NCBI GenBank assembly: GCA_034668585.1
Contig: JAXDPB010000007.1
Coordinates: forward strand, 19,051 to 83,050
Source: Sphingomonadales bacterium
GTDB lineage: Bacteria; Pseudomonadota; Alphaproteobacteria; Sphingomonadales; Sphingomonadaceae
Reading direction: 5' to 3'
DNA length: 64,000 bases
Both the position numbers and the translations under genes were made by a program. The number at the start of each line of letters is the position of its first letter. Within the stretch, counting starts at the first letter, position 1. The notes under the pieces were generated by a model that was not told the DNA's origin, searched no databases, and saw only the letters and a list, made by a program, of their open reading frames with translations. This document shows, one piece after another, positions 47,777 to 64,000 of the stretch.

Positions 47777-47929
47777 GGAGCGCACCGCCGAGCAGAGCCG
47801 GGGGTCGCATCCTCCGCATTCGGCCGGCGCGCTTTCTCCCATCGACTGACGCAGCAAAGGCGCAAAAGCCGATCGAACACAAATCGGCTACATCCCCCGT
47901 CGGACCAGCGGACGGAATCGCGAATAGGA

Positions 47930-48400
47930 TCGAGGTATCTCAGGAACACGACGACCTCGCACCCCACACGACGGTGTGCCGCCGCTGCGGCATCACTGAA
48001 TTTGACGCCGGTGCGAGACGCCCCGTACCGCCGATCGCTGATCCAAGCACCGCACTCTCCGATGAAGACCGCCAAGCAGGCGGCGAAATACGCCCTGTCT
48101 GTCCGGTCCATCCTTTATGGAACGGGCGTGAATCGAACGTCTTGGAGCGATTGGGGAAACTACGGTGCGTCTTCTACTCGCGGCAGAACGCCGCCTGGTC
48201 TCGCCCTCGACGATTTCGGCAAGGGCCATTCCAGTCTCTGCCGCCCGCGCAAGCTGCATTTCGGCCATCTCAAGATCGACCAATCCTTCGTCAATTCGAT
48301 GGACACAATCGAGAGCGTCGAGGTCGTCGGCGCCCCGACAGGACTGGGTAAGGCGCTCGGAATGCCGGTCACTGCCGAAGGAGTGGAGACCGTAGGTAGT
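47930..48400 (+). pseudogene. Degraded EAL-domain fragment
   Basis: LALDDFGKGHSSL...LKIDQSFV...LGMPVTAEGVET in one frame, a decayed ITEFDAGARR (cf. ITGFEALARW) in another; no intact N-terminus. Boundaries approximate. Confidence 0.55.
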
Positions 48401-48519
48401 ACAAAGGCTATAATTTCTTGCCGGCATCGGCCGGCTAAAAATCTTGCAATGATCCCCTCCCGTAGGGGTCGCCAGCTATCACTTCAGCCATCCGGATAGG
48501 TGTTCCGTCCCCAGGAAAG

Positions 48520-48539
48520 TGGCTGGGCGGCAGGATTCG
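48520..48539 (-). mobile_element. tRNA-Gln-like 3'-end fragment, possible att site of an integrative element
   Basis: Minus strand CGAATCCTGCCGCCCAGCCA resembles a tRNA T-arm/acceptor/CCA end with one C missing; adjacent TAAGTCATTGATTTT (48560-48574) and a 9-bp inverted repeat ggcgtacaa/ttgtacgcc (48578-48601). No integrase in window. Confidence 0.45.
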
Positions 48540-48854
48540 CAGCCGGTTTTTTCGGTGGCTAAGTCATTGATTTTGTTGGCGTACAAAACGGCTTGTACGC
48601 CGCAGATGTACAGCGAATTGGCACAATTTTTCAAGGCCTGATCTGGCCAAGGCACCGTGGCAGCGTGGTGGTCACCGGCGGGGCTGGACGCGCGTGGGTG
48701 CATCTGAAATGGACCGAGTTTACGCTTGGCGGCGGCGGGTTTGTGCCGCACATTGACGTTGCCGGATTCCCGCGTGGATCTTTCCACAAAACTCGCTGCG
48801 TGACGCCGCCTGTACCTTGATTTGCGAGATGCAGAGGGCGGGTCGGACCGAGCG

Positions 48855-50819
48855 GTGGCGAAATTCTGCTTCTTCACGGACCCGACCAAGCTTGCGCCGC
48901 AGCAGGCAAGCGAGGCGTTCGGGGCGATGCCGCCGGCCGACGGCAACGACCGCTATCGCGTCAGTGATCTTCATAGTGCCGTAGGCACCGCGCCAGTGGT
49001 AGCAATCTGCGACGGGCTGCTTTGCGCCCAGCGGGACGAGTCTGGCACGCTCAGCCTGGTCCTCAAGCCAATCGAGCAGCCGCCCTTCGATTTCCCGGCG
49101 ATCGCCTATTTCATCTACAAGGGCGTCGACCCGGCAAGCCTGCTGGCCGGAGCGTCGGTGGACGTCGCGAAGGCGGCGGACAACGATCTTATCCGCCAGG
49201 TCGACGCCACCTGGCTCGCACCGGTCAACGGCAACAGCGGAGACCCTCCCGGGCGCTGCCTCGGCCTCCATCTCACGCCCGCGTCCAATACGGCGGATTT
49301 CCCGGATCTGGACCTCGGCCAATATGCCGACTCGGAGCCGCTCGATAACCTCTTCTATCGCGGCGACCCGGAGTTCCAGCTTCCCCTGGTCCGCAGCGGT
49401 TGGCGGTTGGGCGATTTCAGCGCGGCGGGGCCGTTCGGGCTGGAGATTATCGTGGACACTGCCGCCTATGCTCCGCGGATCAGGCTGGCGAGACGGGTAG
49501 AGAACCTGATCGAGGTGGGCTCGCTCGACGCCGGCCTCGCCTACCAGCCTTACGAGGCCGCCTATTTCATGCACTGGCATGCCAAGGAGGAAGTGCTCCA
49601 CTTCGTTGATCCCTGCGCCTTCTGGGGGTCTTTCTATCACGCGAAATTGCGAGTGGTGGCCGCGGACGGGTCCGCCGATCGCAAGAAGGGCGGGGCAATC
49701 TATGCGGACTTGCTGCGCGGCTCCCACGACGACCAGACCCCCATAGCCGGCCTGTTTTACAATCGTAATAAAGTGTATTTGGATATTCGTAACGAACACA
49801 ATCGTTCGTTCGATTACTATAAAACGAATGGCAGGCAGATTCTCGTTACTTTGGATGTCAATGAGTCGGTCGATGATTGTGCTCATGACTATCACCGGAA
49901 TGACTGGCCACTCTACACATTGGACCAGAGCGACGTCGCGGGAGGGATATCGACTGACCGTGCCAAGCTGCGCATCGCGTTCTACACCAACAACTTCAGT
50001 AAGCTGGGCATCTTCAAGCCACCGGATGACCTGGCTCGAGCCGTCTCCGCTTCCTCGCGGCGCCTCGTGGAACTCGTGATCAGCGGACAGCAGAGGAGTC
50101 AACCTGTCTCGTTGCGAATTCCGTCCCACGGCCCGACTCATCGCACGATCGCGCGCTACGTCGGGCTCACGACCCGGTTCGACGATCCGTCAATCCCATC
50201 CGGCCATTACGGAGCGACCGGCCCCTATCCCTGGAGCGTCCCGACCGGAGTGCCCCTTCCGCGGCTGGCTATCGCATTTGAGCGCGACGGATCAGCGGCA
50301 TTGAGAACCTATCCCGATCCCTGCGCCCTGAGGCTGCGAGAAGGCTCACCACAGCCGCTCCTGTGTAACATCGGCTGGATCCGCGCCGGCCTGCAGGCGG
50401 TGCTGTTCGTCGTACCCGCCGGGGCGGCAATCAGCGACATGGAGGCCCCAAGCCCTTCGTATAGCGGCGAGACACCGGGCAACGCCCCGCTGTCGCTGGC
50501 CAATCGGTTGGCCAAGCCGCGGACGATCGTTGCCAGGGATGACGGAAACGGACACACATATCTCGATTATGCCTTTCCCGCCCGCGGACGGGTGCCGGAT
50601 TCATCATGGTCAAGCGCGATGCTGTTCCTGTCCGGTCAGGATCTCGACGCCATCCGGCAATGCGAGGCTGCCGTGGCCACCCTGGTAGTAGCGCCGGGTC
50701 CGCCGGGCACGGACGCGACCGTCGCGCTCGAGATCCAGGGCCTCCAGCAGGCCGGCGAGATCGTGAAACCTTTCAGGCAGACGCTCGGCCAGGCGGTTCC
50801 CAATGCTCCTGTACACTAG
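48855..50819 (+). CDS. Uncharacterised protein (about 654 aa; alternative TTG start 48822)
   Basis: Long ORF, first of four co-directional genes; KFCFFTDP..L..Q....AFG, LVLKP.EQP...I.YFIYKG, N.VYLDIRNE motifs; no function recognised. Confidence 0.75.
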   Translation: MAKFCFFTDPTKLAPQQASEAFGAMPPADGNDRYRVSDLHSAVGTAPVVAICDGLLCAQRDESGTLSLVLKPIEQPPFDFPAIAYFIYKGVDPASLLAGASVDVAKAADNDLIRQVDATWLAPVNGNSGDPPGRCLGLHLTPASNTADFPDLDLGQYADSEPLDNLFYRGDPEFQLPLVRSGWRLGDFSAAGPFGLEIIVDTAAYAPRIRLARRVENLIEVGSLDAGLAYQPYEAAYFMHWHAKEEVLHFVDPCAFWGSFYHAKLRVVAADGSADRKKGGAIYADLLRGSHDDQTPIAGLFYNRNKVYLDIRNEHNRSFDYYKTNGRQILVTLDVNESVDDCAHDYHRNDWPLYTLDQSDVAGGISTDRAKLRIAFYTNNFSKLGIFKPPDDLARAVSASSRRLVELVISGQQRSQPVSLRIPSHGPTHRTIARYVGLTTRFDDPSIPSGHYGATGPYPWSVPTGVPLPRLAIAFERDGSAALRTYPDPCALRLREGSPQPLLCNIGWIRAGLQAVLFVVPAGAAISDMEAPSPSYSGETPGNAPLSLANRLAKPRTIVARDDGNGHTYLDYAFPARGRVPDSSWSSAMLFLSGQDLDAIRQCEAAVATLVVAPGPPGTDATVALEIQGLQQAGEIVKPFRQTLGQAVPNAPVH

Positions 50820-52914
50820 CCAGGGCTTCGACCCCGGCACCGCGCCGATCGACTCGCCGACCTACACGCAGATGGCCGGCTGGGCAGGCGTGGAAAATCG
50901 CCGGCCCGTGGGTCAGGCCGGACATTGGTCCTGCCTCGTCGATTGCGACGACCAGAAGCGGACCGTGACCCTGAAGACGACGATCCTGCTGTTCATGGCC
51001 GAAATCGTGAAACCTATGACTCCCCAGCAGATGGAGATGTACGCGGCATACGTAAAGTATATTATCGAGTCCGTCTGGAGCACCAGCACTAACTTGGGAA
51101 TGACCAAGGGCTGGAACGTAACCTGTAAGGTCGATGCAAAAGTCGTAACGGTAAACGAGGGCACTCTTAACGATGGGGAGCTGTTCATCTCGGTGAAGCG
51201 AGGATCCGGCCGTTCTTTCATAGTTTCCGATCGCAGGGCGGGAGTCTTCTTCATAGACGCGTGGGCGTGGGTCGAGCTGAAGGCGGCACTGCGTGAAAAA
51301 GCCAAGATTAAACCGTCGAAAACGGACATAACAAAATGCTTTCGTGACTCCGGATACACACCCGCTCATGAATTCGGGCATGCTATCGGCTTGGCCGACC
51401 GCTACGCATATATCTGTTATTACCTTCCAAAGGAGAGCTCAGCACCCGCTGAGGTGATCGTCGATCGCGCCCACACCGTCGCAATATTCCTCCACCGCAG
51501 CTATGATTACGAATACGGACATAAGTTCAATTGGTTATTCAATCTTATGGCGATCCAGAATGACGCGTTTCCTGGATCATCCACTGCTCAATTCCAGTGG
51601 GATGGCTTCGATCCGACACGATCCAAATCCGTCAGAGTGCATAATACGTTATTTTATCAAGAGGTGTTCACGGCGCAGACCGCGCCATCTGGCCCAATAA
51701 ACGTTTCAATTACTGAAAAGCAGATCGATATTGTCGGCCACAAGACGGTGGAGGATCAGCTTCTAGGTTGTCCTCCTGCCGCTATTACTTATTTTAAGTC
51801 AATTGATCGTGATTTTTACAAACTTCACAAAGAAAACATAAGCAAGGGATTACCTAGCACTTACGATGAATCTTACGTGTTTCGCGGGACATTTGTCGGG
51901 CTCCCGAATTCTTCTGTGGCCGGTGGACCCGTCCTGCACGACGACGGCTATGACAGCAGCCGAAATACCGGGCTGTCGAACAACAGCCCCTTGTCGAGCA
52001 AGGCTTGGTTCGATGGGGAGATGACCGCGCGTTGCCGGCAGATTCCGCCGGGTTGGTCCGGAAGCCTGGTCCAGGCGGAAGCGCTCAATCGGTCCGGTGG
52101 CCTGCTCGATGCCGCCCTTGAGCTTGGGGGCATGAGCCATCGCTTCGCCGAGCAGACGGAGGTTGACGGAATCAGCGTGCCGAGAAAGTTGGCCGATCTG
52201 CTCGACATAGAAAATCTGGATCGTCGAATATCGATCCGTCGCTTCGTCAGGGAATATATACAAAGCAGGGTGAATGCCGCTGGCGATTTCAATCTGGTGC
52301 TCCCGCCTGTCGGCCCGCTTCGGTCGCTCAACCTTAAGTGTATGCGTGAGATTAAAGCGGCCGATGGCAATTTCTTTCCAACTGACCTGTTTTCGGCCGA
52401 GGGCGACCTTTATCAAGCGCAGTCGCCGGCAACCGCCTGGTTATTCCTTCCATTCGATTATGATGCCGATTCGTTCCGTCCGGGCCGGATCTGGTTCCGT
52501 GCCGATCCGGGCGACCAGACCGGCCCCGGAGTGACGATCGATGTTCAAGACAATCACAAAATCTCAGTCGGATCTTCGGGCCCCGGCATCGTTTACGGAA
52601 CGGGTTCCTCAGCTTCCGAAGTTGCCGAGATCTGGAATGCCGGCTTCAGTCCGGTCGAACGCTGGACGTTTAACGCGGCCGAGTACATGCCGTACAGCGC
52701 CGTTGCGTACAAAAACAGAACCAGACTCATCACATTGGCGGCTCATGGAGTATTGAAGGGCGGCAATACCGACGGCTTGGACCCGTCGAAGTTCACTCTC
52801 GAGAGATGCTTCGAGATGGTCGTCATGACCTACTCCGGCATGGCGGGCGTGGGCGGGCCGGGCAATTCGAACCCGTTCGGAAGCTATCTCGCGCTCCGCT
52901 ACAAGCGGACCTGA
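50803..52914 (+). CDS. Putative zinc metallopeptidase (HExxHxxGxxD), 703 aa
   Basis: YTPAHEFGHAIGLADRY; overlaps previous gene by 17 bp; visibly more AT-rich than flanking genes. Confidence 0.7.
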   Translation: MLLYTSQGFDPGTAPIDSPTYTQMAGWAGVENRRPVGQAGHWSCLVDCDDQKRTVTLKTTILLFMAEIVKPMTPQQMEMYAAYVKYIIESVWSTSTNLGMTKGWNVTCKVDAKVVTVNEGTLNDGELFISVKRGSGRSFIVSDRRAGVFFIDAWAWVELKAALREKAKIKPSKTDITKCFRDSGYTPAHEFGHAIGLADRYAYICYYLPKESSAPAEVIVDRAHTVAIFLHRSYDYEYGHKFNWLFNLMAIQNDAFPGSSTAQFQWDGFDPTRSKSVRVHNTLFYQEVFTAQTAPSGPINVSITEKQIDIVGHKTVEDQLLGCPPAAITYFKSIDRDFYKLHKENISKGLPSTYDESYVFRGTFVGLPNSSVAGGPVLHDDGYDSSRNTGLSNNSPLSSKAWFDGEMTARCRQIPPGWSGSLVQAEALNRSGGLLDAALELGGMSHRFAEQTEVDGISVPRKLADLLDIENLDRRISIRRFVREYIQSRVNAAGDFNLVLPPVGPLRSLNLKCMREIKAADGNFFPTDLFSAEGDLYQAQSPATAWLFLPFDYDADSFRPGRIWFRADPGDQTGPGVTIDVQDNHKISVGSSGPGIVYGTGSSASEVAEIWNAGFSPVERWTFNAAEYMPYSAVAYKNRTRLITLAAHGVLKGGNTDGLDPSKFTLERCFEMVVMTYSGMAGVGGPGNSNPFGSYLALRYKRT

Positions 52915-52939: not shown

Positions 52940-55900
52940 ATGAGTGACCCCCGCGCCCGCGGCCGAGTCTCGGACCTTGTCGATTTGTCGGCCCTGCCGG
53001 TGCCGCTCGAAGGTGCAGGCGAGAGCCTGACGGAGCTGCTCGGGCGGGTCGGCTACAGCGAGTTCATCGCCGAGGTCTCGCCGGATGGGGACCGGGCCTA
53101 TTATGGCCTTACCCTCGCTACAAAGGAGCTTGCGCTCGATGTCGCAGGCACCGGCCTAAAGCTCATCTTCTTCCCTTCCGCCGACCCGCAGCAGGCGGAA
53201 TCCCACATTCCGCTCGGCATGGAATATCAGTGGCCGATTCTCAAATATGTGGCGGCGTTCGAGCGGCTCTCATTCTCGAATGGGCCGCGCGCCTTCTTCG
53301 ACCTGCTGCTCGACATAGCAGGCCTCACCGAACAGGAGCTGATCGCCGGCATAGTGAGTGTATTCATCGACGATCCGGCGCCTTATCAGGTGCTTGTCGA
53401 CAAGCTCGCCGACTGGAGCTCGGGCGGAAGCAATCCGTTCGCCGGCCTTTCACTTGCCAGCCTCGCTCCGGGCCAGGACGAAAGCGAGCATCTCTCGGAA
53501 CAGGCGCTGGCGCTCGGCGGCGACCTGATCAGCGCCCTGTTCGAGGCGATCATCGACAGCGGGGCCTCGCCCGACGACATTATTGACGACGTGATCACGC
53601 TCTTCCGCGGCTGGCTGGGCGACATCGACCGGGCGGCGATCGAACGGCTGCTCGTCCCCCAGTTCAGCGTCGCTCTGCAGAACGTCAGCATGGCGCTGGA
53701 GGCGCCGCGGAGCGTGCTGCTGCCGCTGGACGAGGACGGGGAGGAGATTGCCGACTCGAAAGTACATTCGCGAGTCACCTTCACCGCCGGAGGAATCAGC
53801 TACGACAGCGAGACCGGGTTCGACATCGCCGTCGACGACAGCCTCGGAATCGCCTTCACGCGGTCGAAGATCCCGGGCTTCGGGCTCACCCTCGATTTCC
53901 AGGACATCAAGGTCGACCTCAGCGCGAAGACCAACATCGCCGAGGCGGATGCGGAAGGGCGGCCGGCCGACTTCAAAGGCGTCTATATCGGCCACGCCAT
54001 CATCGGCCTTCCGAAGCAATGGTTCTCGAGCGCCACCGGCGCCGGCGCCACGATCGGCATCGTCGGCCGCAAGCTGCTGATCGGAACCGGCGGCTTTTCC
54101 GGCACGATCGGGCTCGAGGCGCTCGGCCTCGACGGCAAGCCGCTCATCGACAAGCCCGACACGGGCCCGCCGGGCGCGATGGAATTCGTGCTCGGCAAGA
54201 AGCCGCCGGACGGCGGCCCCCGCCAGGGCTTCAAGGTCGGCTTCACCGCCTTCGACATGAAGTTCCGCCAGAACGTCCTGCTCGAGAGCCGGATCGCCGG
54301 CAAGCTGACCATCCCCAAACTCCAGGCGCAGCCTATCGGGGTGGAATTGTTCATCGCTGCCGACGGCGACTTCAGGCTGACTGCAAGCTCGTCGCCGCCG
54401 GTCGATATCAAGGTACCAAACGTCTTCATCTTCAGGTGCAGCAAGGTGGCGGTCGGCAAGGACGGCGACCGGATCTATCTCGAGACCAGCGGCGACCTCA
54501 GCTTCGAGAATAACAGCCTGATCGGCAGCCTGCTCAAGACCCCGATCCACATCGACAAGTTCCTGATCAACTCGGACGGAAGCTTCGAGCTCGAGGGCGG
54601 CTCGATCCCCCTCCCCTCGAGCGCGACGATCAAGGTCGGGCCGGCCAAGATCGCGATCACCGCCCTCCATTTCGGAGCCCACGAGCAGGTCCACCAGGGC
54701 GAGCTTCGCAAATATCGCTACTGGGGCTTCGACGGCGGAGTCAGCGTCAATCCCGGCGGAGTCGACTGCCGCGGCGACGGCATCAAATTCTACTTCACCG
54801 TCGACGACAAGCCGCTCCACTGCTTCCTCAGGATCGAGGGGATCGGAATCGACCTCGTCATCCCGGGGACGGCGTCGAAGGACCAGGCGGTCCTCATCCT
54901 CAAGGGCTATCTGTCGCTCAAGAATCCCGAATATCTCGGCTCGATCTCCTTCTCGCTGCCCAAGGTGAAGATCGCCGGCGGCGGCACGATGAAATACAAT
55001 ACGTCCTATCCGGCCTGGGCGGTCGACGTCTGGCTGGAGCTGCCGATGCCGATCCTGGTCGGCTCGACCGGGCTCGGCATATACGGCTTCAGGGGCCTGT
55101 TCGGCCTGCGCTACATCGCCTCGAAGGCCGCCATCAACCCGCCGCTGGCCGCCGATGCGAGCTGGGGTGATTATTACCGGGCGCCGCAGCCGAAGAAGGG
55201 GCTGTGGGTCGACAAGCTGATGACCCCCGTGGACACGGGCGGCGCCAAGAACCCCTTCTCCGTCGGCGCCGGAGTCAGCCTCGCCACCGCCCAGGACAAG
55301 GGCAAGGCCTTCTCGTCGCAGCTCTTCCTGCTCGTCTCCCTCCCCAACCTGATCATGCTGGAGGGCCGCGCCGACATTCTCGCCAAGCAGCGCGTCGGGC
55401 TGACCGACGGCGAACCGCCTTATTACGCCTATCTTGCGCTGTCGCCGGAAAGCATCGAGCTCGGCGCCGGGGTCAATTACCTGATACCGAAGGAGACCGG
55501 GGAGACGCTCAACCTCACCGCCGTGTTCGAGGCCGCCTATTTCTGGCGCAATTCCTCGGCCTGGTACGTCCATTTCGGAACCAAGGCCAAGCCGATGACG
55601 GCGCGCATCCTCGATATGCTCGACGGCTACGCCTATCTGATGCTGTCGGCGAGCGGCATCGAGGCGGGCGCCGGAGTCCATTTCGAGTTCAGCAAATCCT
55701 ACGGGCCGGTGTCGGTCGACGCCTACGCCTATCTCGACACCTGGGCCTATCTCAGCTTCGAGCGTTCGCAGGCCGGCGGCGGCATCGCGCTCGGCGGGCA
55801 TGTCGACGTCACCTTCATGAAGGTCGGCTTCTACATCTCGCTCGACGCCGGGCTGACCGTCGAGGCGCCGACGCCCTATCGCGTCGCCGGCTATGTCGAG

Positions 55901-58900
55901 ATCTGCGTGACCGTGAATCTGAAGATCAAAAGCTTCAGCAAATGCGTCGACCTCAATTTCGAATGGCAGCGCAGCAACCAGGTCGACATGAGCCCGGTCG
56001 CCGCCCTGATCGCACCGCCGGCCGCGCCGGCGCCGCCGCCGGCGGTGGCAGTGCACATGATGTCGGGGGCGACCTATCCGGTCGAATTCTCGACCCATCC
56101 GGCGATGGTGCCGACGGCCGACAATGACTGGGCGATCCCGCTCGACGCCTATATCGACGTCAAGCTCGGCAAGCGGGTCGACCCTCTCCACGCCACGGGC
56201 GCCAGGATCGGCGGCGCCACCACGCCGCCCGCCGGCCAGGTCGAAACGCTGCCGCCTCGCTACGGTTCGCGCATCGTCGAGCATGCCTACTCGCTCGAAA
56301 GGGTGGCGCTCGAGGTGCTCGGCCCCGACGGCTGGCGCGATTACCGGCCTTATGAAGCGATCGCCGGCGAGGGCTTCGTCACCGCGGTCGGCGGCCAGGA
56401 CATCGCGGCGATGCCGGTCGGCCTGTGGCAGAAACAGGAAGAGGGATACGGTCAGATCCGCTTCCTGGCGCTGACCCCGTTCAGCTTCGTCGGCCCGACC
56501 CCCGACCACCGGCCGGAGGAGACCGGGGTCACCGCTGCCTCGCTCTACTGCGTCGCGCCCGAGCGTCCCGAACAATGCCTGGTCTGGCGAGAGCCGCGAG
56601 ACCTGGCCTCGGGCGCCGACCATTTTCGCGACGGGATCCTCTATCGGGTGGACGGCGCGGCGACCGCATCGATCCCGCGCCCGGGCGCCCCGTCGCCCGG
56701 AGCCGCCGCGACGGCCGGGCCGCCGCCCCCCTCCTGCCAACTGGCGATCGGCGAAGGCGGCCGAGCCACCTTCCTGCTTCCCGGGTCCGTCGTTTCCTGC
56801 CGGGTCCACGCGACCAGCCGAGCGCCGCGGATCGTGCTGCGCTTCCAGCGGCTGAAATCGTCCGGGCCGGTGCCGGGACCCGATGGGCTCGTCTGGCCGC
56901 CTTCGCCGCCCGAATATGAGGACGTTCGGACCGAAACCGTCGCCCGCGCGGATCTTGCCAGGCCGATCGTCTACGACGATCCGGCGGCGCCGATCAGGCG
57001 CATCGTCATCGAGACCCCGGTACCCGACCGCCGGGCGATCGGCGCCCTCGAGGAGGAGATCGCGCTCCGCCAGGACGAATGGTATCGCGCCGACGAGCGC
57101 GCGCGGCCGAAGCTCCGCGCCGAGATGGACAGGCTCGCGGCCAGGCTCCGCGAGGAGCACGCCAGGACGTGCGTGGACGGTGGCGGAGGCGGCGGCGCCG
57201 ACCCCGGCGAAACGGGCGCGATCGAAGCGCTCGAGGAACTGCTCGCCGCCTTGCTCGCCGAGATCGAGACGCTGGCCGCGGCCTACAATTCGGGCTGCGT
57301 CCCCCGCCCGGCGCCCGATCCCGAATGCGCCCGGCTCGCCGCCGAAATCGCCGCCCTCGAGGCCCGAGTCGAGGCTCTCAAGCGCGCGCTCGCCGAGCTC
57401 CGCCGGAAGCCCGGCGGTCTGAGCGCCGCGCTCGCTCGGGAAATCGCCGCGCTGGAGACGCGCGTCAAGGAGCGCGAGCGCGCCCTGGCGGCGTTCGACG
57501 ATCGGATCGCCGGCCTGCGCGCGGCAATCGCCGCGCTGGAGCAGCGCTCGGAGGTGCTCAGGAGGCACCGCGCGGAGCTGGACAAGCCTGCGGCTCCCGA
57601 GGCCCCGCGCGGCGAGGCCTGGGCCTGCGGCACGTTCGTTCAGGAGATTTGCTGGCTGTCGGAGGAAGACCGGCGATATAATGACAGCCGGCCCGACATC
57701 GCGGCGATCGCGGCGGATTACGAACCGATGCGGCAGGCGGTCGAATGCGCGGTGGCGCCGATCTGGCGCCCGCACCAGACCTACCGAATCACCCTCGCCG
57801 TCCGCGACACGGTAAAGGCCGGCGGCAGCACCGCCCCGGCGGACGGCACCTTCTACGTCCATTTCAGGACGAAGGGACCGATCGGAAGCTTTCGCGACCC
57901 GCCCCAGCCCGTGCCGGGCGAAGTGGAGGATCCGCGTCCCGACAGCCCGGAGCAGTTCCTCAAATATTATATCGACCGGGAACGCTCCTTCCCCGATCCG
58001 GCCGGCGACCTGCTCTATGCCAAGCCTCTCTTCTACCGCGACGTGGTGCTTCACCTGCGCCTCGCCAGGCCCCATGCCTTCCATTTCTTCGCCGACTGGC
58101 CCGATTACGGCCTCGGCCCCTGCCACTACGAGATGGCGATCCGGGTCAAGGATCCGGCCGAGGCGGTGCCGTCCTCGAGCGACCCCGACCATGCGGCGGT
58201 CATCGTCTCGTCGCCCATCCTCGGCGATCAGACGTGGAAGCCGGTCGCGGCTCCGCCCACGCCCGAGCTCACGATGCTCAACAACCTTCACGACCCCCTT
58301 GCCGGCGGCGCCTCGAACGGCACCGCCTGCCTGAACCAGGCGATCAGGGGCCCGGTCAAGCCGGCGGCGCTGGCGATCAGCACCGAGCTCGGCGACCTCA
58401 AGCCGAACAAGCTCTATACGGCCGTCATCCTCAATCGCAGGCTGGACGTCTCGCCGCCCACCGAAGCCGAGGTCCACCGCTACCCGTTCAAGACATCGCG
58501 CTACCCCGATTTCGCCGCCCAGATCGGCAGCTGCGTGCTGGATGCCGAGCCCGACAGCCTCAAGATGGCGGTGTTCGCCGTCGATCACGACCTCGCGGAC
58601 CCGGCGGGAGCCCCGGCGGCCTATGCGAAGGCGCTTCAGATCGTCAAAGGCTCGGCGCCGGCGGATACTGCCTTTCCCGACTATTTCGACCAATTGCTCT
58701 ACGGCCATTTGAAGCTTGCCCCGCTTCCGCCGGCGGCGGACCTCGAATTCAACTTCGTCACCAATGCCCTTGCGGGCGAGACTTACGGGCTGTGGATACG
58801 CGGGCCGGAGGCGCTCAACGACCGGCGCGCGCCGCGGCAGAACCGGGAAGCGGCGCTGACACTCCACCACGCCGGAATGCCGCGCAGCGACGCCCGGGTC

Positions 58901-59059
58901 CTGCTGTCGAAGGACGGCTGCCAGGCCTTCGTCATGATCGAGGGCGGACCGATGCCGACGGACGACCTGTCGGTGGCGTTCGGGTTGCTCGCCCCGGACG
59001 GTCAGAGCGTGGCCGAGACGGTCGTCACCGGCACGCTGACCATGCCCCGGGAGGTGTGA
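52940..59059 (+). CDS. Giant uncharacterised protein (2039 aa): long beta-rich region, coiled coil, C-terminal domain
   Basis: Single ORF with strong high-GC codon bias; long run of Gly/aromatic amphipathic strands (DUF6603-like by recollection); heptad-rich segment at about 57030-57590. Confidence 0.85.
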   Translation: MSDPRARGRVSDLVDLSALPVPLEGAGESLTELLGRVGYSEFIAEVSPDGDRAYYGLTLATKELALDVAGTGLKLIFFPSADPQQAESHIPLGMEYQWPILKYVAAFERLSFSNGPRAFFDLLLDIAGLTEQELIAGIVSVFIDDPAPYQVLVDKLADWSSGGSNPFAGLSLASLAPGQDESEHLSEQALALGGDLISALFEAIIDSGASPDDIIDDVITLFRGWLGDIDRAAIERLLVPQFSVALQNVSMALEAPRSVLLPLDEDGEEIADSKVHSRVTFTAGGISYDSETGFDIAVDDSLGIAFTRSKIPGFGLTLDFQDIKVDLSAKTNIAEADAEGRPADFKGVYIGHAIIGLPKQWFSSATGAGATIGIVGRKLLIGTGGFSGTIGLEALGLDGKPLIDKPDTGPPGAMEFVLGKKPPDGGPRQGFKVGFTAFDMKFRQNVLLESRIAGKLTIPKLQAQPIGVELFIAADGDFRLTASSSPPVDIKVPNVFIFRCSKVAVGKDGDRIYLETSGDLSFENNSLIGSLLKTPIHIDKFLINSDGSFELEGGSIPLPSSATIKVGPAKIAITALHFGAHEQVHQGELRKYRYWGFDGGVSVNPGGVDCRGDGIKFYFTVDDKPLHCFLRIEGIGIDLVIPGTASKDQAVLILKGYLSLKNPEYLGSISFSLPKVKIAGGGTMKYNTSYPAWAVDVWLELPMPILVGSTGLGIYGFRGLFGLRYIASKAAINPPLAADASWGDYYRAPQPKKGLWVDKLMTPVDTGGAKNPFSVGAGVSLATAQDKGKAFSSQLFLLVSLPNLIMLEGRADILAKQRVGLTDGEPPYYAYLALSPESIELGAGVNYLIPKETGETLNLTAVFEAAYFWRNSSAWYVHFGTKAKPMTARILDMLDGYAYLMLSASGIEAGAGVHFEFSKSYGPVSVDAYAYLDTWAYLSFERSQAGGGIALGGHVDVTFMKVGFYISLDAGLTVEAPTPYRVAGYVEICVTVNLKIKSFSKCVDLNFEWQRSNQVDMSPVAALIAPPAAPAPPPAVAVHMMSGATYPVEFSTHPAMVPTADNDWAIPLDAYIDVKLGKRVDPLHATGARIGGATTPPAGQVETLPPRYGSRIVEHAYSLERVALEVLGPDGWRDYRPYEAIAGEGFVTAVGGQDIAAMPVGLWQKQEEGYGQIRFLALTPFSFVGPTPDHRPEETGVTAASLYCVAPERPEQCLVWREPRDLASGADHFRDGILYRVDGAATASIPRPGAPSPGAAATAGPPPPSCQLAIGEGGRATFLLPGSVVSCRVHATSRAPRIVLRFQRLKSSGPVPGPDGLVWPPSPPEYEDVRTETVARADLARPIVYDDPAAPIRRIVIETPVPDRRAIGALEEEIALRQDEWYRADERARPKLRAEMDRLAARLREEHARTCVDGGGGGGADPGETGAIEALEELLAALLAEIETLAAAYNSGCVPRPAPDPECARLAAEIAALEARVEALKRALAELRRKPGGLSAALAREIAALETRVKERERALAAFDDRIAGLRAAIAALEQRSEVLRRHRAELDKPAAPEAPRGEAWACGTFVQEICWLSEEDRRYNDSRPDIAAIAADYEPMRQAVECAVAPIWRPHQTYRITLAVRDTVKAGGSTAPADGTFYVHFRTKGPIGSFRDPPQPVPGEVEDPRPDSPEQFLKYYIDRERSFPDPAGDLLYAKPLFYRDVVLHLRLARPHAFHFFADWPDYGLGPCHYEMAIRVKDPAEAVPSSSDPDHAAVIVSSPILGDQTWKPVAAPPTPELTMLNNLHDPLAGGASNGTACLNQAIRGPVKPAALAISTELGDLKPNKLYTAVILNRRLDVSPPTEAEVHRYPFKTSRYPDFAAQIGSCVLDAEPDSLKMAVFAVDHDLADPAGAPAAYAKALQIVKGSAPADTAFPDYFDQLLYGHLKLAPLPPAADLEFNFVTNALAGETYGLWIRGPEALNDRRAPRQNREAALTLHHAGMPRSDARVLLSKDGCQAFVMIEGGPMPTDDLSVAFGLLAPDGQSVAETVVTGTLTMPREV

Positions 59060-59060
59060 C

Positions 59061-62000
59061 GTGCCCTTCTTCAACAGCTACGCCTTCGACCTGCCGAACC
59101 ACTTCAACCGTGCGCTGCCGGTCATAGGCGGCACGGCCGGGCGCTTCCTGGCGGTCGGTGGCGCGGGCGGCACCGGGACCGCGGCGATGATCGAGGCCGA
59201 CGGCTCCTGCACATGGGCCCGCCGCTACCAGGACCCAACGCCCGACTTCGGCGACGCCGTCTTCAATGTGCTCGACTTCGTCGACGCCGTCCAGGTCGGC
59301 AATGAGGGCTTCCTTCTGCTGTCGGCGGTCGAGGGGAGGACCGAATATGTGCTCGTACGGATCGATGCGGGCGGGGCGGTCTTGTGGTCGCGCGCGATCC
59401 CCGACGTCGGCTTCGGCCCCGGCGCGCGTGTGCTGAGGCCCCGCGACAGCGTGAACGAGTTCCTGGTCGTCGCCTGGCCCCCACCCCTCGCCTCGAACTA
59501 TCGCAAGGTCGCGGCGAAGCTGTTCCGATTGGCGGCGGACGGGTCGGTGCTGCAGGCGGCCGAGCTTGCCGGGAACGGCGGACGGGTGTTCGACGCGGTC
59601 GCGGTCGGCGGCGGCTACATATTGGTCGGCGACCAGGACCCGCGCACGGCCGCCCAGTTCGCCGCCGGCGATCCCGGCCTGAACCTCCTGTGGTCGCCCC
59701 CCTTGATCGTCCAGATCAACCTCGGCCTAACCGCCTGCGAGCGATGGACGCTGCGGCAAATAGATTCAACGACCGGCACTCCGTTCCCGGCCTCGGCGTC
59801 GCTGCGCGCCGTCACCGCCGGAGCGGGCCAGTCGCTGTTCATCGCGGGCGCGATGGCGAACCCTCTCCTTCCCCTCTGGACGGGGGTGATGCGGTTCGAT
59901 GCCGATTGGAAGGCCCCGACGTTTAAGAGCGCGGTGACCTATCAGCCGTTCGGCGGCGGCCACCGTCCGCACCGGATCGGCTGGTCGTGGCCGCGATCGG
60001 GCGGCGACGCCGCCTCCGGCGACCTCGAGCTTTACGTCCTCGATGTCGGGCTGGAGCAGCTGCAGGACACCAGCAGCGTCATCCGGCTGGACAAGAAACT
60101 GGCGGCGCAGGCCCTGTACGGGTTCGGATGGCCGGGGGAGCATCAGGTCGACGATTTGCGGGTGGCAGCGAACGGCGACGTTGGGCTCGCCGCCACGCTT
60201 ACCCATGCCACCGCCATCGGGCTCGAAGGCCCACCCGTCCAGCCGAGTGCCGAGCTTGCAACCTTCATCTCGGTCGACTGGCGGTTCGAGACCTGCAGGT
60301 CGACGCCGCGCGACATTCCGACGACCAGGCCGCTCGGCTTCGACGTCGCGGCCGGTCCGGAGACGCTGGTCAAGATCGCGGCGAGCAGCCGGCCGGCAGC
60401 AATGTCCTCCGGGCCGACGCCCGTCCGTCCCTACTGGTGGTGCGGCAAGCCAGAACCAGAGCCCAGGTTCGAGCTGCAAGAGAATGCGCTGGTGCAATCG
60501 CCCTATCTCATCCTCCAGGCCGCCGGTTCGGAGGGCAGCGACGCGTCGCGCGGCATCTTGCTGCGCTGGCTCCTCGCCGGGACGCTCGGCGACACGCATT
60601 TGCCCAAAGGCTCGCTCGCCGGCACGAGCACGAACTTCAACAAGCCCGACGATTTCGTGCGTCTCTACCGCGCGCCGTGGCCGGCTTCGATGCCGGTGCG
60701 GAGCTTGAGCTTCCTCTCCGACCGGCCGCGCCACGTCGACGACGGCGAGCGGCTGCTCGTGTTCGAGACCGGCAGCGCCAAGCCCGCCGACCTCTTCCAC
60801 GTCCGCTTCCTCGATGCGGCGGCCTATGCGGCGGCCAGGCAGACCAGCGACCCCGCGACCAGCCCGCCCGCCTTCCTCGCCGCTTACGGGGCCCGTCCCG
60901 TCGAGATCGAATTGCGGGGCCGGCTGGCGATCGGCTGCGACCTGGATTTCGCGCCAAATCCGGGCTGCAGCGTGCGAGTGGAGACCCGGTCGGTCGGCGA
61001 GAACCGGCCGCTGGCGCCGAAGCAGACGAGCTCGCGCCGGATCCTCGGCCCGGCCGACGGTCCCACCGCGAGGCTCTACGCCGAGAACATGCGCAGCCTC
61101 AGGGTGCAGTGCGCCGGCACCGGGATCCGAACGGTAGCGTTCCTCTGCTACGAGGACGTGCTGGCGGTGCTGAACCGGGACCAGGCCTGGAGCGAGGTCG
61201 GACGCTTCGCCCTGACCGACGATACCGCCACGGCGCTCGCCCGCCTCGAGGACCCGGCGCGCTTTCAGGTGAACGGGCTGTGGCGCAAGTTCAACGACGG
61301 CGCCTTCGTCAATGTGAAGAATTACCAGGACCGGTGGAGCGATTCCCAGAGCGGCCTCCGCTCGGCGGTGAAGACCTACGTCCAGCTCAGCGAGACCGAC
61401 CCTAATGCCGAGGCGAAGCTGGCGGGCGCGTCGTCGCAGGACGGCGAGATGAAGGTCAGCTATCTCGACCTGCTGCAGCTCGCGGCGACCGATTTCCACG
61501 TCGCCCGAATGCTCGGGCTGGGACATGTCGACTGGGAGGCGGCGCTGCCTGGGGCGCCGCCGCAAACCTGGGTCCACCTCGCCGAATATCTCACCTCGGG
61601 CGACCTCGGCGACGGCGGCGGGCCGAGGCCGGTCCAGCATCTCTATCTGAGCCTGCCGACCAACTCCGGCGAGGCCCGGTTGCCGGTTACGCCGCGGCTC
61701 GACGCCGTGGAGTACGGGCTTACGGTCACGACCGCGTCGGGCGATCCCTACTGGCTGACCGATGCCGGCGGCTACACGCCTGACGGCCTGTCCCGCTTCA
61801 TCCGGCTCTATCCCGACTGCCCGCCCTTGTTCGAGCAGGAGAAGGGGTTCTTCGACCCGCCCAACCTCTTCGACCTGTCGCGTGAGAGCCTGCCCGTCTT
61901 CTACGGAGTCGAGCATCGCCTTCAGGGCGAGCCGGGATGGCGCCGCCCCGAGATCGCCCACGATCCGGTCTATCTCGACACCGCGGCTCCGCCTCGGGCC

Positions 62001-64000
62001 GAAGCCCGTCCGGTCCCGTTCGGGGCGACGCGCATGGCGAAGCCGTTTCCGCACGAGCAGAAGGAGCCGGGCGTCCACGAATATGCCGTCTACGGAGTCA
62101 ACCTCTTCTCCCGCGCCTCGCCGGTCAGCCCGGCCTTCGCCAGCGCCGCGACGACATTCGTCAAGGCAAACCGCCTGCTTCCGCCGAGCGACCTGCAGGT
62201 GCAGTTCATCCAGCCCGAATCCCCGCTCGTGCTGACCTCGGCCGACGAGCAGACGATGCTCGACGACCTGGTGCAGGCCGGGAAGGACCCGACGCTGGTG
62301 CGGCTCTGCTTCAACTATGGCTTTCCCCAGGAGGCCAATTACGATTTCGGCCGCGCCGTCGAGATCCTCCACCGCCGCCTTCCCCCGGCCAACGTAACCG
62401 GCGCGGTGGCGGCGGTCGCCGCGGCGACCGACCCGTCGTTCGCCCGCATCGAGACTCGGCCCTATACCTATTCAAGCACGAAGGAGACGATCCAGCCGAC
62501 GCTGCCGCCTGCCGCCAAGGCCAATTTCCTCGGCGGCGTGCTGGCCGTCGGGAGCCGGCGCCTGATTATCGAGGATATCATCTGGCCGCCGGGAAGCAGC
62601 GGCGACAATCCGATCTTTGTGGTCCGCAAGCCGACGACGACCGGCGCCGTCGGCACGGGCAGCCTGGTGATCGAGAGCGCGCCGCTCGATGCCAATCCGG
62701 GCGACCTGTTCATGGCCGTCGAGAACATGGCGGCCGCGGCCAGCTGGGGCCCGGGCAATCCGCTCGGTCGGGTGATCGCGCTCGGCGACGATCCGAGCTG
62801 GAAGACCCGGACCGAAAGCTTCACGCGCCCGGGCCAGACCCAGGTGAGCCGCCGCCTGCGCGGGATCTGGGAAAGCGCGAAGGTCGTCGAGGACCCCGCG
62901 GGATCGAAACATTACACCATCACCTTCGCCAGCTATACGCTCTCGCCGCATCCGCAATCGGCCGCCGCCGATCCGGTGAGCTGGTTCCGCGGCACCGCCC
63001 GGGTGCCGGTGACGGGCCGGGATCCCGAGGACCGGCGGATGCTGAAGGTGATCGGCATCGGCCAAAGCGGCGGCCGGCTCGAGCTGCGCGCCGTCGACGA
63101 CGGCGGCGAGGCGGGGACGGTCGCGACCGGGCCCGGGCAGCTGGTCCATTATCTTCCGGGCTATCGGGTCCATCTCCATGCCGATCCCACCAGCGGCTTC
63201 GATCGGACGACTCTGATGCCGGCGCCCGGGGAGAGCTCGCGAACCACTCTGATCGGGGTGCGCTCGGTCGATCCCACGACCCTGGACGCAAGCGCGAAGC
63301 CGTACCGCTCGCCGGTCGGCGTGCCGCAATTGCTGACCGCGATGGAAATCGTCGAGCCCGGCATTCCCTTGCGGCCGAGGGGCCTCAGATATGCGACCCC
63401 GCCGGACGCCTATGGCAAAGCGAGCTATACGCTGAATGTCGAATTCAAAGCGGCGCCTTTCGCCGTCGCTTTCTATCGCGCCGACGCGCTCGCCATCCTC
63501 GAGGCGCTCTACGAGCCCGCCCAGCAGGCGGAAATTCGGGCGGCGATATTCCCCGCCCAGGCCGACCCCTATTTCGCCAGCCGCTTCGACGATCTGTTCG
63601 CTTTCTTCGATTCGGACGATTCCACCACGGTCCTGGCCGTTTTCCCGCTTGCGCTCGGCGACAATTATTTCCTGCCCCTGCCCAACGCCGCGTCGCTGGC
63701 GCTGGCCGGCCTGACGACGCTGGCGGAACGCAAGCAGCGGATGAAGGCGGCCGTGCTCGAGGCATTCGTGGCGCTGACGGAGCAGCCGCTCATCTACGAG
63801 CTGATCAGCACCGACCCGGCTTTCGCGCCAACCAACGCCAGGCAGACGTTCCGGGACGCCGACGGGAAAGTCCTCGCCCCCGGCCAGACCGGCTTCGACC
63901 TGGCGCCGATGGCGAAGCGGCCAGGCGGGTACGCCGTCCAGTTCACCGATTTCACCCTCGAAGGATCGATGAACCGGAACACCGTCTATTTCTATCTTGC
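59061..64000 (+). CDS. Giant uncharacterised protein, >1646 aa, 3'-truncated (not in supplied ORF track)
   Basis: GGAGGTG then GTG at 59061, 1 bp after the previous stop; manual translation finds no stop to base 64000: MPFFNSYAFDLP...W.RRY...WSRAI...QSPYLILQAAGS...GILLRW...SYLDLL....DFHVARMLGLG...YAVYGVNLFSRAS...FTDFTLEGS. Confidence 0.88.
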   Translation, partial: MPFFNSYAFDLPNHFNRALPVIGGTAGRFLAVGGAGGTGTAAMIEADGSCTWARRYQDPTPDFGDAVFNVLDFVDAVQVGNEGFLLLSAVEGRTEYVLVRIDAGGAVLWSRAIPDVGFGPGARVLRPRDSVNEFLVVAWPPPLASNYRKVAAKLFRLAADGSVLQAAELAGNGGRVFDAVAVGGGYILVGDQDPRTAAQFAAGDPGLNLLWSPPLIVQINLGLTACERWTLRQIDSTTGTPFPASASLRAVTAGAGQSLFIAGAMANPLLPLWTGVMRFDADWKAPTFKSAVTYQPFGGGHRPHRIGWSWPRSGGDAASGDLELYVLDVGLEQLQDTSSVIRLDKKLAAQALYGFGWPGEHQVDDLRVAANGDVGLAATLTHATAIGLEGPPVQPSAELATFISVDWRFETCRSTPRDIPTTRPLGFDVAAGPETLVKIAASSRPAAMSSGPTPVRPYWWCGKPEPEPRFELQENALVQSPYLILQAAGSEGSDASRGILLRWLLAGTLGDTHLPKGSLAGTSTNFNKPDDFVRLYRAPWPASMPVRSLSFLSDRPRHVDDGERLLVFETGSAKPADLFHVRFLDAAAYAAARQTSDPATSPPAFLAAYGARPVEIELRGRLAIGCDLDFAPNPGCSVRVETRSVGENRPLAPKQTSSRRILGPADGPTARLYAENMRSLRVQCAGTGIRTVAFLCYEDVLAVLNRDQAWSEVGRFALTDDTATALARLEDPARFQVNGLWRKFNDGAFVNVKNYQDRWSDSQSGLRSAVKTYVQLSETDPNAEAKLAGASSQDGEMKVSYLDLLQLAATDFHVARMLGLGHVDWEAALPGAPPQTWVHLAEYLTSGDLGDGGGPRPVQHLYLSLPTNSGEARLPVTPRLDAVEYGLTVTTASGDPYWLTDAGGYTPDGLSRFIRLYPDCPPLFEQEKGFFDPPNLFDLSRESLPVFYGVEHRLQGEPGWRRPEIAHDPVYLDTAAPPRAEARPVPFGATRMAKPFPHEQKEPGVHEYAVYGVNLFSRASPVSPAFASAATTFVKANRLLPPSDLQVQFIQPESPLVLTSADEQTMLDDLVQAGKDPTLVRLCFNYGFPQEANYDFGRAVEILHRRLPPANVTGAVAAVAAATDPSFARIETRPYTYSSTKETIQPTLPPAAKANFLGGVLAVGSRRLIIEDIIWPPGSSGDNPIFVVRKPTTTGAVGTGSLVIESAPLDANPGDLFMAVENMAAAASWGPGNPLGRVIALGDDPSWKTRTESFTRPGQTQVSRRLRGIWESAKVVEDPAGSKHYTITFASYTLSPHPQSAAADPVSWFRGTARVPVTGRDPEDRRMLKVIGIGQSGGRLELRAVDDGGEAGTVATGPGQLVHYLPGYRVHLHADPTSGFDRTTLMPAPGESSRTTLIGVRSVDPTTLDASAKPYRSPVGVPQLLTAMEIVEPGIPLRPRGLRYATPPDAYGKASYTLNVEFKAAPFAVAFYRADALAILEALYEPAQQAEIRAAIFPAQADPYFASRFDDLFAFFDSDDSTTVLAVFPLALGDNYFLPLPNAASLALAGLTTLAERKQRMKAAVLEAFVALTEQPLIYELISTDPAFAPTNARQTFRDADGKVLAPGQTGFDLAPMAKRPGGYAVQFTDFTLEGSMNRNTVYFYL

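Follow-up and report, generated by a model that had tools for sequence, protein, structure and literature searches.

An operon of four genes in a Sphingomonadales genome may encode a mobile scaffold with exchangeable modules

We analyzed a stretch of 64,000 nucleotides (nt) from a Sphingomonadales genome of 99 contigs and 69% GC (GenBank assembly GCA_034668585.1, contig JAXDPB010000007.1; C7:19051-83050), hereafter called the window. The window ends inside the last gene of an operon of four genes, F3, B, F1, and F0, which encode proteins of 665, 703, 2039, and 1915 amino acids (aa) in that order (Table 1). Neighbouring genes overlap or are almost contiguous, a layout suggestive of translational coupling across the operon. 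A first-pass annotation, made from the letters of the window and a list of its open reading frames (ORFs), had described F0 as a hidden frame of more than 1646 codons. A hidden ORF is trivial by itself, and our interest is in the F0 family and in the module of four genes to which it belongs.

F0 is a genuine, translationally coupled gene and the last of the operon. The GTG start codon (59061-59063) is 6 nt after GGAGG (59050-59054) and 1 nt past the TGA stop codon of F1 (59057-59059). The part of the frame inside the window has 1646 codons without a stop, the last full codon ending at 63998, and on the contig beyond the window the frame continues to a stop codon at window-equivalent position 64808, giving the full gene of 1915 aa (L004:112-5859). 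The GC content of F0 at codon positions 1, 2, and 3 is 0.68, 0.51, and 0.87, the normal pattern for a gene in a genome with 69% GC. All ORFs that overlap F0 have their GC peak in position 1, indicating that they are out-of-phase shadows, as had been proposed; these shadows include an ORF of 868 aa on the minus strand and one of 1874 aa opposite F1. DNA of 69% GC yields many long spurious ORFs, several of which overlap F0, and F0 might itself have been a chance open frame rather than a gene. That explanation was refuted, and we give it practically no credence. The in-phase pattern of codon-position GC was found only in the F0 frame, and 113 full-length homologues, with identities down to 29%, share conserved blocks with F0. 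Compared to the closest homologue (82% aa identity), there were 445 differences in third positions and 374 over the first and second positions together. Finally, AlphaFold models of F0 were confident (below).

Most of what the first-pass annotation had read from this part of the sequence held up. The GTG codon with its GGAGGTG site and the frame open to the end of the window are all there, and the frame belongs to a very large, real gene. The motifs that it had quoted are all present (QSPYLILQAAGS at aa 479, GILLRW at 498, DFHVARMLGLG at 811, YAVYGVNLFSRAS at 1008, LLPPSDL at 1039, and YATPPDAYGKASYTL at 1444), and homologues have the same motifs, which are conserved blocks throughout the family. 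The description of F0 as hidden and missed by the ORF list was correct in a trivial sense, most likely because the frame runs off the end of the window, but public databases already contain its relatives, called as genes and listed as hypothetical proteins. An ORF of 467 aa after F0 was considered as a fifth gene and rejected; it overlaps a tRNA-Gln gene.

Table 1. Positions of the operon, the regions of F0, and nearby sequence features in the window
Feature	Position	Strand	Basis or remarks
Copy of tRNA-Gln 3' end, 20 nt, one indel; candidate left att-like boundary	48521..48540	.	Same orientation, 15-nt exact core
F3, 665 aa, first gene of the module	48822..50819	+	Conserved N-terminal ~400 aa, variable C-terminus
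B, 703 aa, hypervariable, HEFGH motif at aa 189	50803..52914	+	GC3 (GC at third codon positions), homologue search
F1, 2039 aa, beta-rich with coiled-coil insert, partner of F0	52940..59059	+	Synteny, profile searches
Ribosome-binding site GGAGGTG	59050..59056	+	Overlaps end of F1; translational coupling
F0 aa 1-465, variable N-terminal region, putative SBBP/CylK-type beta-propeller	59061..60455	+	CylK profile match, poor conservation
F0 aa 466-1015, most conserved core, predicted beta-sandwiches and helical subdomain	60456..62105	+	AlphaFold2, Foldseek
F0 aa 1016-1646 (continues to aa 1915, stop at window-equivalent 64808)	62106..64000	+	Model of aa 716-1915

F0 consists of a variable N-terminal region and a conserved body of ~1440 aa. 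In an alignment of 42 full-length homologues, the first ~470 residues were poorly conserved and gappy, and residues 475-1915 were uniformly conserved with dozens of invariant positions. F0 matched no family in Pfam (E <= 0.01), NCBIfam, PHROG, or PADLOC, and sequence searches of the PDB found no relative. In profile searches of the PDB, the only match of the family was in the N-terminal part, to the beta-propeller of CylK (E 1e-4, profile positions 34-232); a Pfam search of F0 gave no propeller match. The first ~430 aa had been described as a beta-propeller built of repeated blade-like units. Two clear G..W.R.[YI] units are present (aa 48-56 and 104-113), but there is no series of them through the region. 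A propeller-like fold for the N-terminal ~465 aa is plausible, though weakly supported. In other lineages, the N-terminal extension has Invasin_D3/Big_1, filamin, or LamG domains or is absent, and the start of the conserved core varies from residue 5 to residue 2029 across the proteins of the family.

The conserved body of F0 was predicted to be mostly beta-strand domains, part of them without a relative of known structure. We made AlphaFold2 models of two segments, using alignments of 75-78 sequences from related loci. The model of aa 466-1015 had a mean predicted local distance difference test (pLDDT) of 93.5 and a predicted template modelling (TM) score of 0.91. It has runs of beta-strands with helical stretches between them, one of which contains DFHVARMLGLG. 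Foldseek found no match for this model in the PDB at E <= 1e-3 and only a faint likeness to carbohydrate-binding jelly-rolls. These predictions point to new folds in a core of 550 aa for which the PDB offers no structural relative. Residues 716-1915, modelled as one piece (pLDDT 86), were mostly beta-strand domains with one helical stretch. Foldseek matched this second model with a probability of 1.0 to arrays of FN3 and immunoglobulin (Ig) domains, but with TM-scores of ~0.1. The matches included titin-like filaments and cytokine receptors and, from phages, lambda gpJ, 'tip attachment protein J', and minor tail proteins; the gpJ entries (8k35_A, 9e7m_Ja, and 8iyk_F) also had TM-scores of ~0.1. 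The likeness to FN3 and Ig domains is at the level of single domains and does not amount to a relation of the whole proteins. The FN3-like content proposed in the first-pass annotation agrees with these matches, but the motif on which it had been based could not be assigned to an FN3 domain.

Arrays of this kind, perhaps forming a stalk behind a terminal binding domain, might indicate that F0 is a fibrillar adhesin of the cell surface or an S-layer-like protein that is exported by an unrecognised route. In addition, DUF5977, found in genes downstream of F0 in some Bacteroidota, is named in a survey of fibrillar adhesins. However, the core of F0 is a unique, non-repetitive sequence of 550 aa, with no tandem stalk repeat. 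We detected no signal peptide, lipobox, membrane anchor, or secretion-signal domain in F0, and it matches no Pfam or NCBIfam family. Further, F0 is coupled obligately to three other proteins that also lack signals. We consider it very unlikely that F0 is a surface adhesin.

The genes upstream of F0 encode two further proteins with conserved parts and one that is hypervariable. The F3 family was found in 19 loci, along with proteins of ~720 aa from Flavobacteriia that align over the first ~400 aa; these ~400 residues are conserved across phyla. F3 had no match in Pfam or the PDB in sequence and profile searches, and neither did B. The GC content at third codon positions (GC3) of B is 0.65, compared to 0.87 in F1 and F0, and B is thus compositionally foreign. 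Among 5.8 billion proteins, we found one homologue of B, with 38% identity and in the same F3-B-F1 context (L095). B looks like a recently swapped cassette, judging from composition and homologues. Residues 894-997 of F1 resembled DUF6603 with a score of 21.1 bits (19.5 bits in the search of the genome), below the Pfam cut-off of 27, and a few F1 homologues have a precomputed match to DUF6603. A literature search on DUF6603 found no paper that mentions it. The profile search of F1 against the PDB gave only coiled-coil noise. We also considered that F0 and F1 might be paralogs and rejected this, as a comparison of their profiles showed no relation.

The operon recurs in Alphaproteobacteria, Acidobacteriota, Kapaibacteriota, and Bacteroidota, with a patchy distribution among close relatives. 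A profile of the F0 core found 390 clusters (50% identity) among 1.84 billion representatives, 331 of them at E <= 1e-30, and the family is closed, with almost no distant halo. Relatives of F0 are present in the genomes of 303 species. We fetched 80 related loci from named genomes, clustered the ORFs of all of them, and counted gene orders over 83 loci. The sample included Allosphingosinicella, Asticcacaulis, Hyphomicrobiales, Rhodospirillales, Acidobacteriota, Kapaibacteriota, and many Bacteroidota, with cultured carriers among strains of Flavobacterium, Chryseobacterium, Pedobacter, Mesonia, and Aquimarina. A member of the F1 family was directly upstream of a member of the F0 family in 72 of the 83 loci, which is strong support from synteny for the link between F0 and its 2039-aa neighbour that the first-pass annotation had pointed to.

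The position between F3 and F1 is taken by a variable gene, or else that gene is fused to F3. Domains found in the variable genes include LRR, WG repeats, phage fibre repeats, RHS, TIG, Peptidase_C15, and Peptidase_S8; RHS repeats were present in one of 36 variable genes. Variable modules of the binding type occupy three positions of the module: the N-terminus of F0, the C-terminus of F3, and B. A tandem duplication of the F3-like gene together with its variable partner is present in Flavobacterium limnosediminis JC2902 (720 + 922 aa and 720 + 938 aa; L090:1262-13197). The two copies of F3 are 84% identical and the partners only 26%, a pattern suggestive of a single scaffold with alternative heads.

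Further genes often extend the operon past F0 in Bacteroidota. Genes that resemble tail fibres (PHROG tail fibre families and Gp53-like_C) follow F0 in ~33 of the 83 loci. DUF5977/DUF285 proteins and Amidase_2/SH3 or Amidase_3 enzymes were found in fewer loci (~12 for the amidase families), and one downstream gene had a weak PT-HINT match. By eye, two N-termini of the tail-fibre-like proteins (L047:5903-6703, L084:14843-16072, and relatives) appear to share a short motif, F..GD.PT...F..L.DS, which could be a docking peptide for a scaffold.

Some of these features are reminiscent of Tc toxins, giant complexes without signal peptides that, according to one report, leave the cell by way of a lysis cassette (PMC10847048). 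F1 and F0 could form a Tc-like machine for translocation and receptor binding that delivers a variable enzyme into a target cell, the enzyme being B or the C-terminus of F3 (for example, an HExxH or S8 peptidase). The subunits are giant and have no signal peptides, peptidase-type or RHS-containing genes are found at the position of the cargo, and lysis-type amidases and the weak PT-HINT match are nearby in some loci. However, F0, F1, F3, and B have no VRP1, TcA_TcB_BD, or SpvB domain, and most of the variable modules are binding repeats (LRR, WG, Ig-like) and not enzymes, with RHS in the single gene mentioned above. The 50 best Foldseek matches listed for each of the two F0 models also include no TcA structure. 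A Tc-like complex is therefore improbable.

The four proteins have no recognizable export signals and no recognizable effector domains. A hydropathy scan of F3, B, F1, and F0 revealed no signal peptide, hydrophobic N-terminus, or membrane segment, and searches of Pfam and NCBIfam found no NTPase, nuclease, or other effector domain. The absence of export signals would be expected if the module acted inside the cell, either as an anti-phage or other conflict system in which the variable domains sense an invader or as a large cytoplasmic structure. The patchy, island-borne distribution and the hypervariability of B would also fit, as would a STAND NTPase gene in one Flavobacterium operon: in F. 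limnosediminis, a gene for a protein of 1127 aa with SMEK_N and NB-ARC domains is in the co-directional run downstream of the module (L037:18883-22266). Arguing against this, the four proteins themselves lack NTPase, nuclease, and effector domains, and FN3, Big_1, invasin, LamG, LRR, and tail-fibre repeats are typical of extracellular binding proteins. In addition, PADLOC gave only coiled-coil noise, with 13-bit matches in F1 and none in F0, F3, or B, and we rejected a known defence system. We regard a function inside the cell as quite unlikely.

The module of four genes is likely, although not proven, to be a genomic island. There is an intact tRNA-Gln(ttg) gene on the minus strand at window-equivalent positions 64962-65036 (L004:6013-6087), 153 nt past the F0 stop codon. 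A copy of its 3' end is found ~280 nt before F3 (TGGCTGGGCGGCAGGATTCG at 48521-48540, compared to TGGCTGGGGCGGCAGGATTCG at the 3' end of the tRNA gene). A tRNA gene together with a repeat of its 3' end is the pattern left by integration into the 3' end of a tRNA gene. The pair would bound an island of ~16.4 kb with exactly the four genes and no integrase. An ORF of 252 aa that abuts the repeat (47741-48499) retains just the final third of an EAL domain; it may have been truncated by a rearrangement or an insertion at this site, leaving a remnant.

Independently of the tRNA repeat, mobility of the module is supported by its patchy distribution in congeners and by its neighbours in other genomes. 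The core was found in one of 24 other species of the genus and in none of 16 other genera of the order. A copy in Mucilaginibacter adjoins a gene of the conjugative-transposon type (DUF4134) and a gene for a giant helicase protein with weak matches to Eco57I-type methylases, and a copy in Rhodospirillum adjoins transposase genes. We also counted the low GC3 of B in favor of mobility. Carriage on plasmids was rejected, as there was no match to the F0 family among 72,556 plasmid records.

The flanks of the island were compared to the genomes of 40 congeners. No orthologue of the left flank was present there, and the tRNA-Gln gene and the right-flank gene were on different contigs. The gene to the right of tRNA-Gln is well conserved in congeners (82-89% identity), and its separation from the tRNA-Gln region in all 40 indicates either a lineage-specific breakpoint or a misjoin just past the tRNA gene (window-equivalent ~65040-65110; L004:6088-6160). 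The sole congener copy of the core (G020:C4:170057-174387) is 70% identical and is split over three frames; it is a pseudogene, or else the assembly, made from long reads, has indel errors.

The obvious idea was a phage origin. The module could be what is left of a tailed prophage after domestication or in the course of decay, with F3, F1, and F0 as proteins of the tail tip or baseplate and the central fibre (like gpJ or Tal) that require a phage tail. Endolysin-type amidases accompany the tail-fibre-like genes after F0 in part of the Bacteroidota loci, and lambda gpJ and 'tip attachment protein J' are among the Foldseek matches listed. One provirus record also has the module near a gene that resembles a tape measure. 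That record was the only match to the F0 family in 2.9 million viral contigs of IMG/VR, and there was no match in 50,697 phage records. The order of genes in the provirus is the tape-measure-like gene, a BACON-domain protein, a 594-aa protein, tRNA-Arg and a tyrosine integrase (L088:6945-8295), and then F3-B-F1-F0. A junction of a tRNA gene and an integrase is the usual end of a prophage. Because this junction separates the module from the tail genes, we place the module just outside of the prophage; the provirus call overshoots by ~22 kb, taking in a giant-gene module that is not phage, and we rejected membership in a prophage on the basis of this match.

The neighbours of the module elsewhere likewise argue against a prophage. 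In cultured Flavobacteriia, the genes upstream of F3 encode FtsK, LptFG, a histidine kinase, and a GH25 lysozyme, and there are no head or tail genes. The upstream part of the window has ordinary signalling genes (AraC/DJ-1, response regulators, histidine kinases, MraZ, and GGDEF-EAL), by which we rejected a phage-tail operon or an operon for an extracellular contractile injection system (eCIS) upstream of F0. The island has no gene for a tube, tape measure, sheath, or capsid, and F0, F1, and F3 match no tail family in Pfam or PHROG. We conclude that a prophage piece is an unlikely explanation.

Based on the domain contents and gene orders, we tentatively propose a large conserved scaffold built from the F1 protein, the body of F0, and the N-terminal domain of F3. 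It would display exchangeable ligand-binding or enzymatic modules, namely the N-terminus of F0, the C-terminus of F3, and the product of the B gene, joined in Bacteroidota by separate tail-fibre-like proteins. The complex would act outside of the cell on a target surface as a device for adhesion or delivery, and would leave the producer by a route other than Sec. Lysis would be the likeliest exit, because peptidoglycan amidases are co-encoded in a minority of Bacteroidota loci; the exit of giant, signal-less complexes through a lysis cassette has a precedent (PMC10847048). The logic would resemble that of the tail-tip and receptor-binding apparatus of phages or that of a Tc-type toxin complex, although the module is not detectably a member of either. 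We consider this proposal, from the scaffold to its release and extracellular action, to be a real possibility that falls somewhat short of an even chance.

Several observations weigh against the proposal. The FN3 and Ig matches of F0 are generic (TM ~0.1). The F0 core has 30-40% identity across phyla over 1400 aa and many invariant His, Asp, Glu, and Arg residues, such as D811 and H813 in DFHVARMLGLG, which would fit an enzyme too; these charged residues appear to leave room for a catalytic role. The extracellular site of action is suggested only by domain types and by neighbours that the island in the window lacks, this alphaproteobacterial island having no amidase, holin, or fibre gene. Finally, the att-like repeat is short (20 nt, 15 exact), there is no integrase inside the island, and no empty site was found.

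More broadly, F3, B, F1, and F0 could be an undescribed mobile machine that is shared across phyla: a megadalton-scale scaffold of new folds with swappable binding or enzymatic heads, used for adhesion to other cells or attack on them, and independent of phage tails, contractile injection systems, and Tc toxins. We put this forward as a possibility that is appreciably less than evenly balanced. The ~390 clusters of a ~1900-aa protein and its ~2100-aa partner, from soil and aquatic bacteria of at least four phyla, have no annotation, Pfam family, or solved relative, and our literature searches (tailocins, giant proteins, and tail fibers in Flavobacterium, Bacteroidota, and Acidobacteriota) returned nothing relevant to F0, F1, or F3. 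A conserved scaffold, exchangeable heads, fibre-like accessories, and mobility make up the pattern of devices for conflict between cells. Cultured carriers, including Asticcacaulis sp. AC402, several Flavobacterium species (among them F. akiainvivens IK-1), Chryseobacterium sp. FH1, and Pedobacter glucosidilyticus DSM 23534, would allow direct tests.

The module shares features with several known systems and differs from each of them. None of the libraries searched relates the conserved parts of F0, F1, or F3 to a known system, and the module is placed outside of the known kinds by exclusion and not by a demonstrated mechanism. F1 has a likeness to DUF6603, through its sub-threshold match and the precomputed matches in a few of its homologues, but F1 itself is under the curated cut-off and DUF6603 has no known function. 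For eCIS and tailocins, we found no Pfam match to a sheath, tube, gp25/gp6-type baseplate, or spike in any gene of this locus or among the representatives that we scanned from related loci.

Like lambda gpJ and the receptor-binding assemblies of siphophages, the proteins of the module are large chains without signal peptides that have FN3/Ig-like domains and variable, target-binding parts on a conserved body, and in Bacteroidota the modules adjoin tail-fibre-like genes and amidases. Unlike gpJ and central tail fibres, F0 matches no family in Pfam (E <= 0.01) or PHROG, its structural matches are to generic FN3 domains with TM-scores of ~0.1, and it is not in a block of tail genes; the upstream genes are for signalling or housekeeping, and the module has no tape-measure, tube, or capsid gene. 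With fibrillar adhesins, F0 has in common a binding region at one end, of the invasin, LamG, or filamin type in other lineages and perhaps propeller-like here, with arrays of beta-sandwiches behind it, but it differs in having no signal peptide or anchor, in its non-repetitive core of 550 aa, and in its partners F1 and F3. The Tc (ABC) toxins and type 10 secretion are similar in having several giant, signal-less subunits encoded in one mobile operon, exchangeable Ig-like modules for receptor binding, a variable enzyme-like gene, and, in some lineages, lysis-type enzymes near the module; the module differs in lacking the Tc signature domains and, as a rule, an RHS cocoon partner. If the proposal is correct, then the module would represent a new class beside tailocins, contractile injection systems, and Tc toxins.

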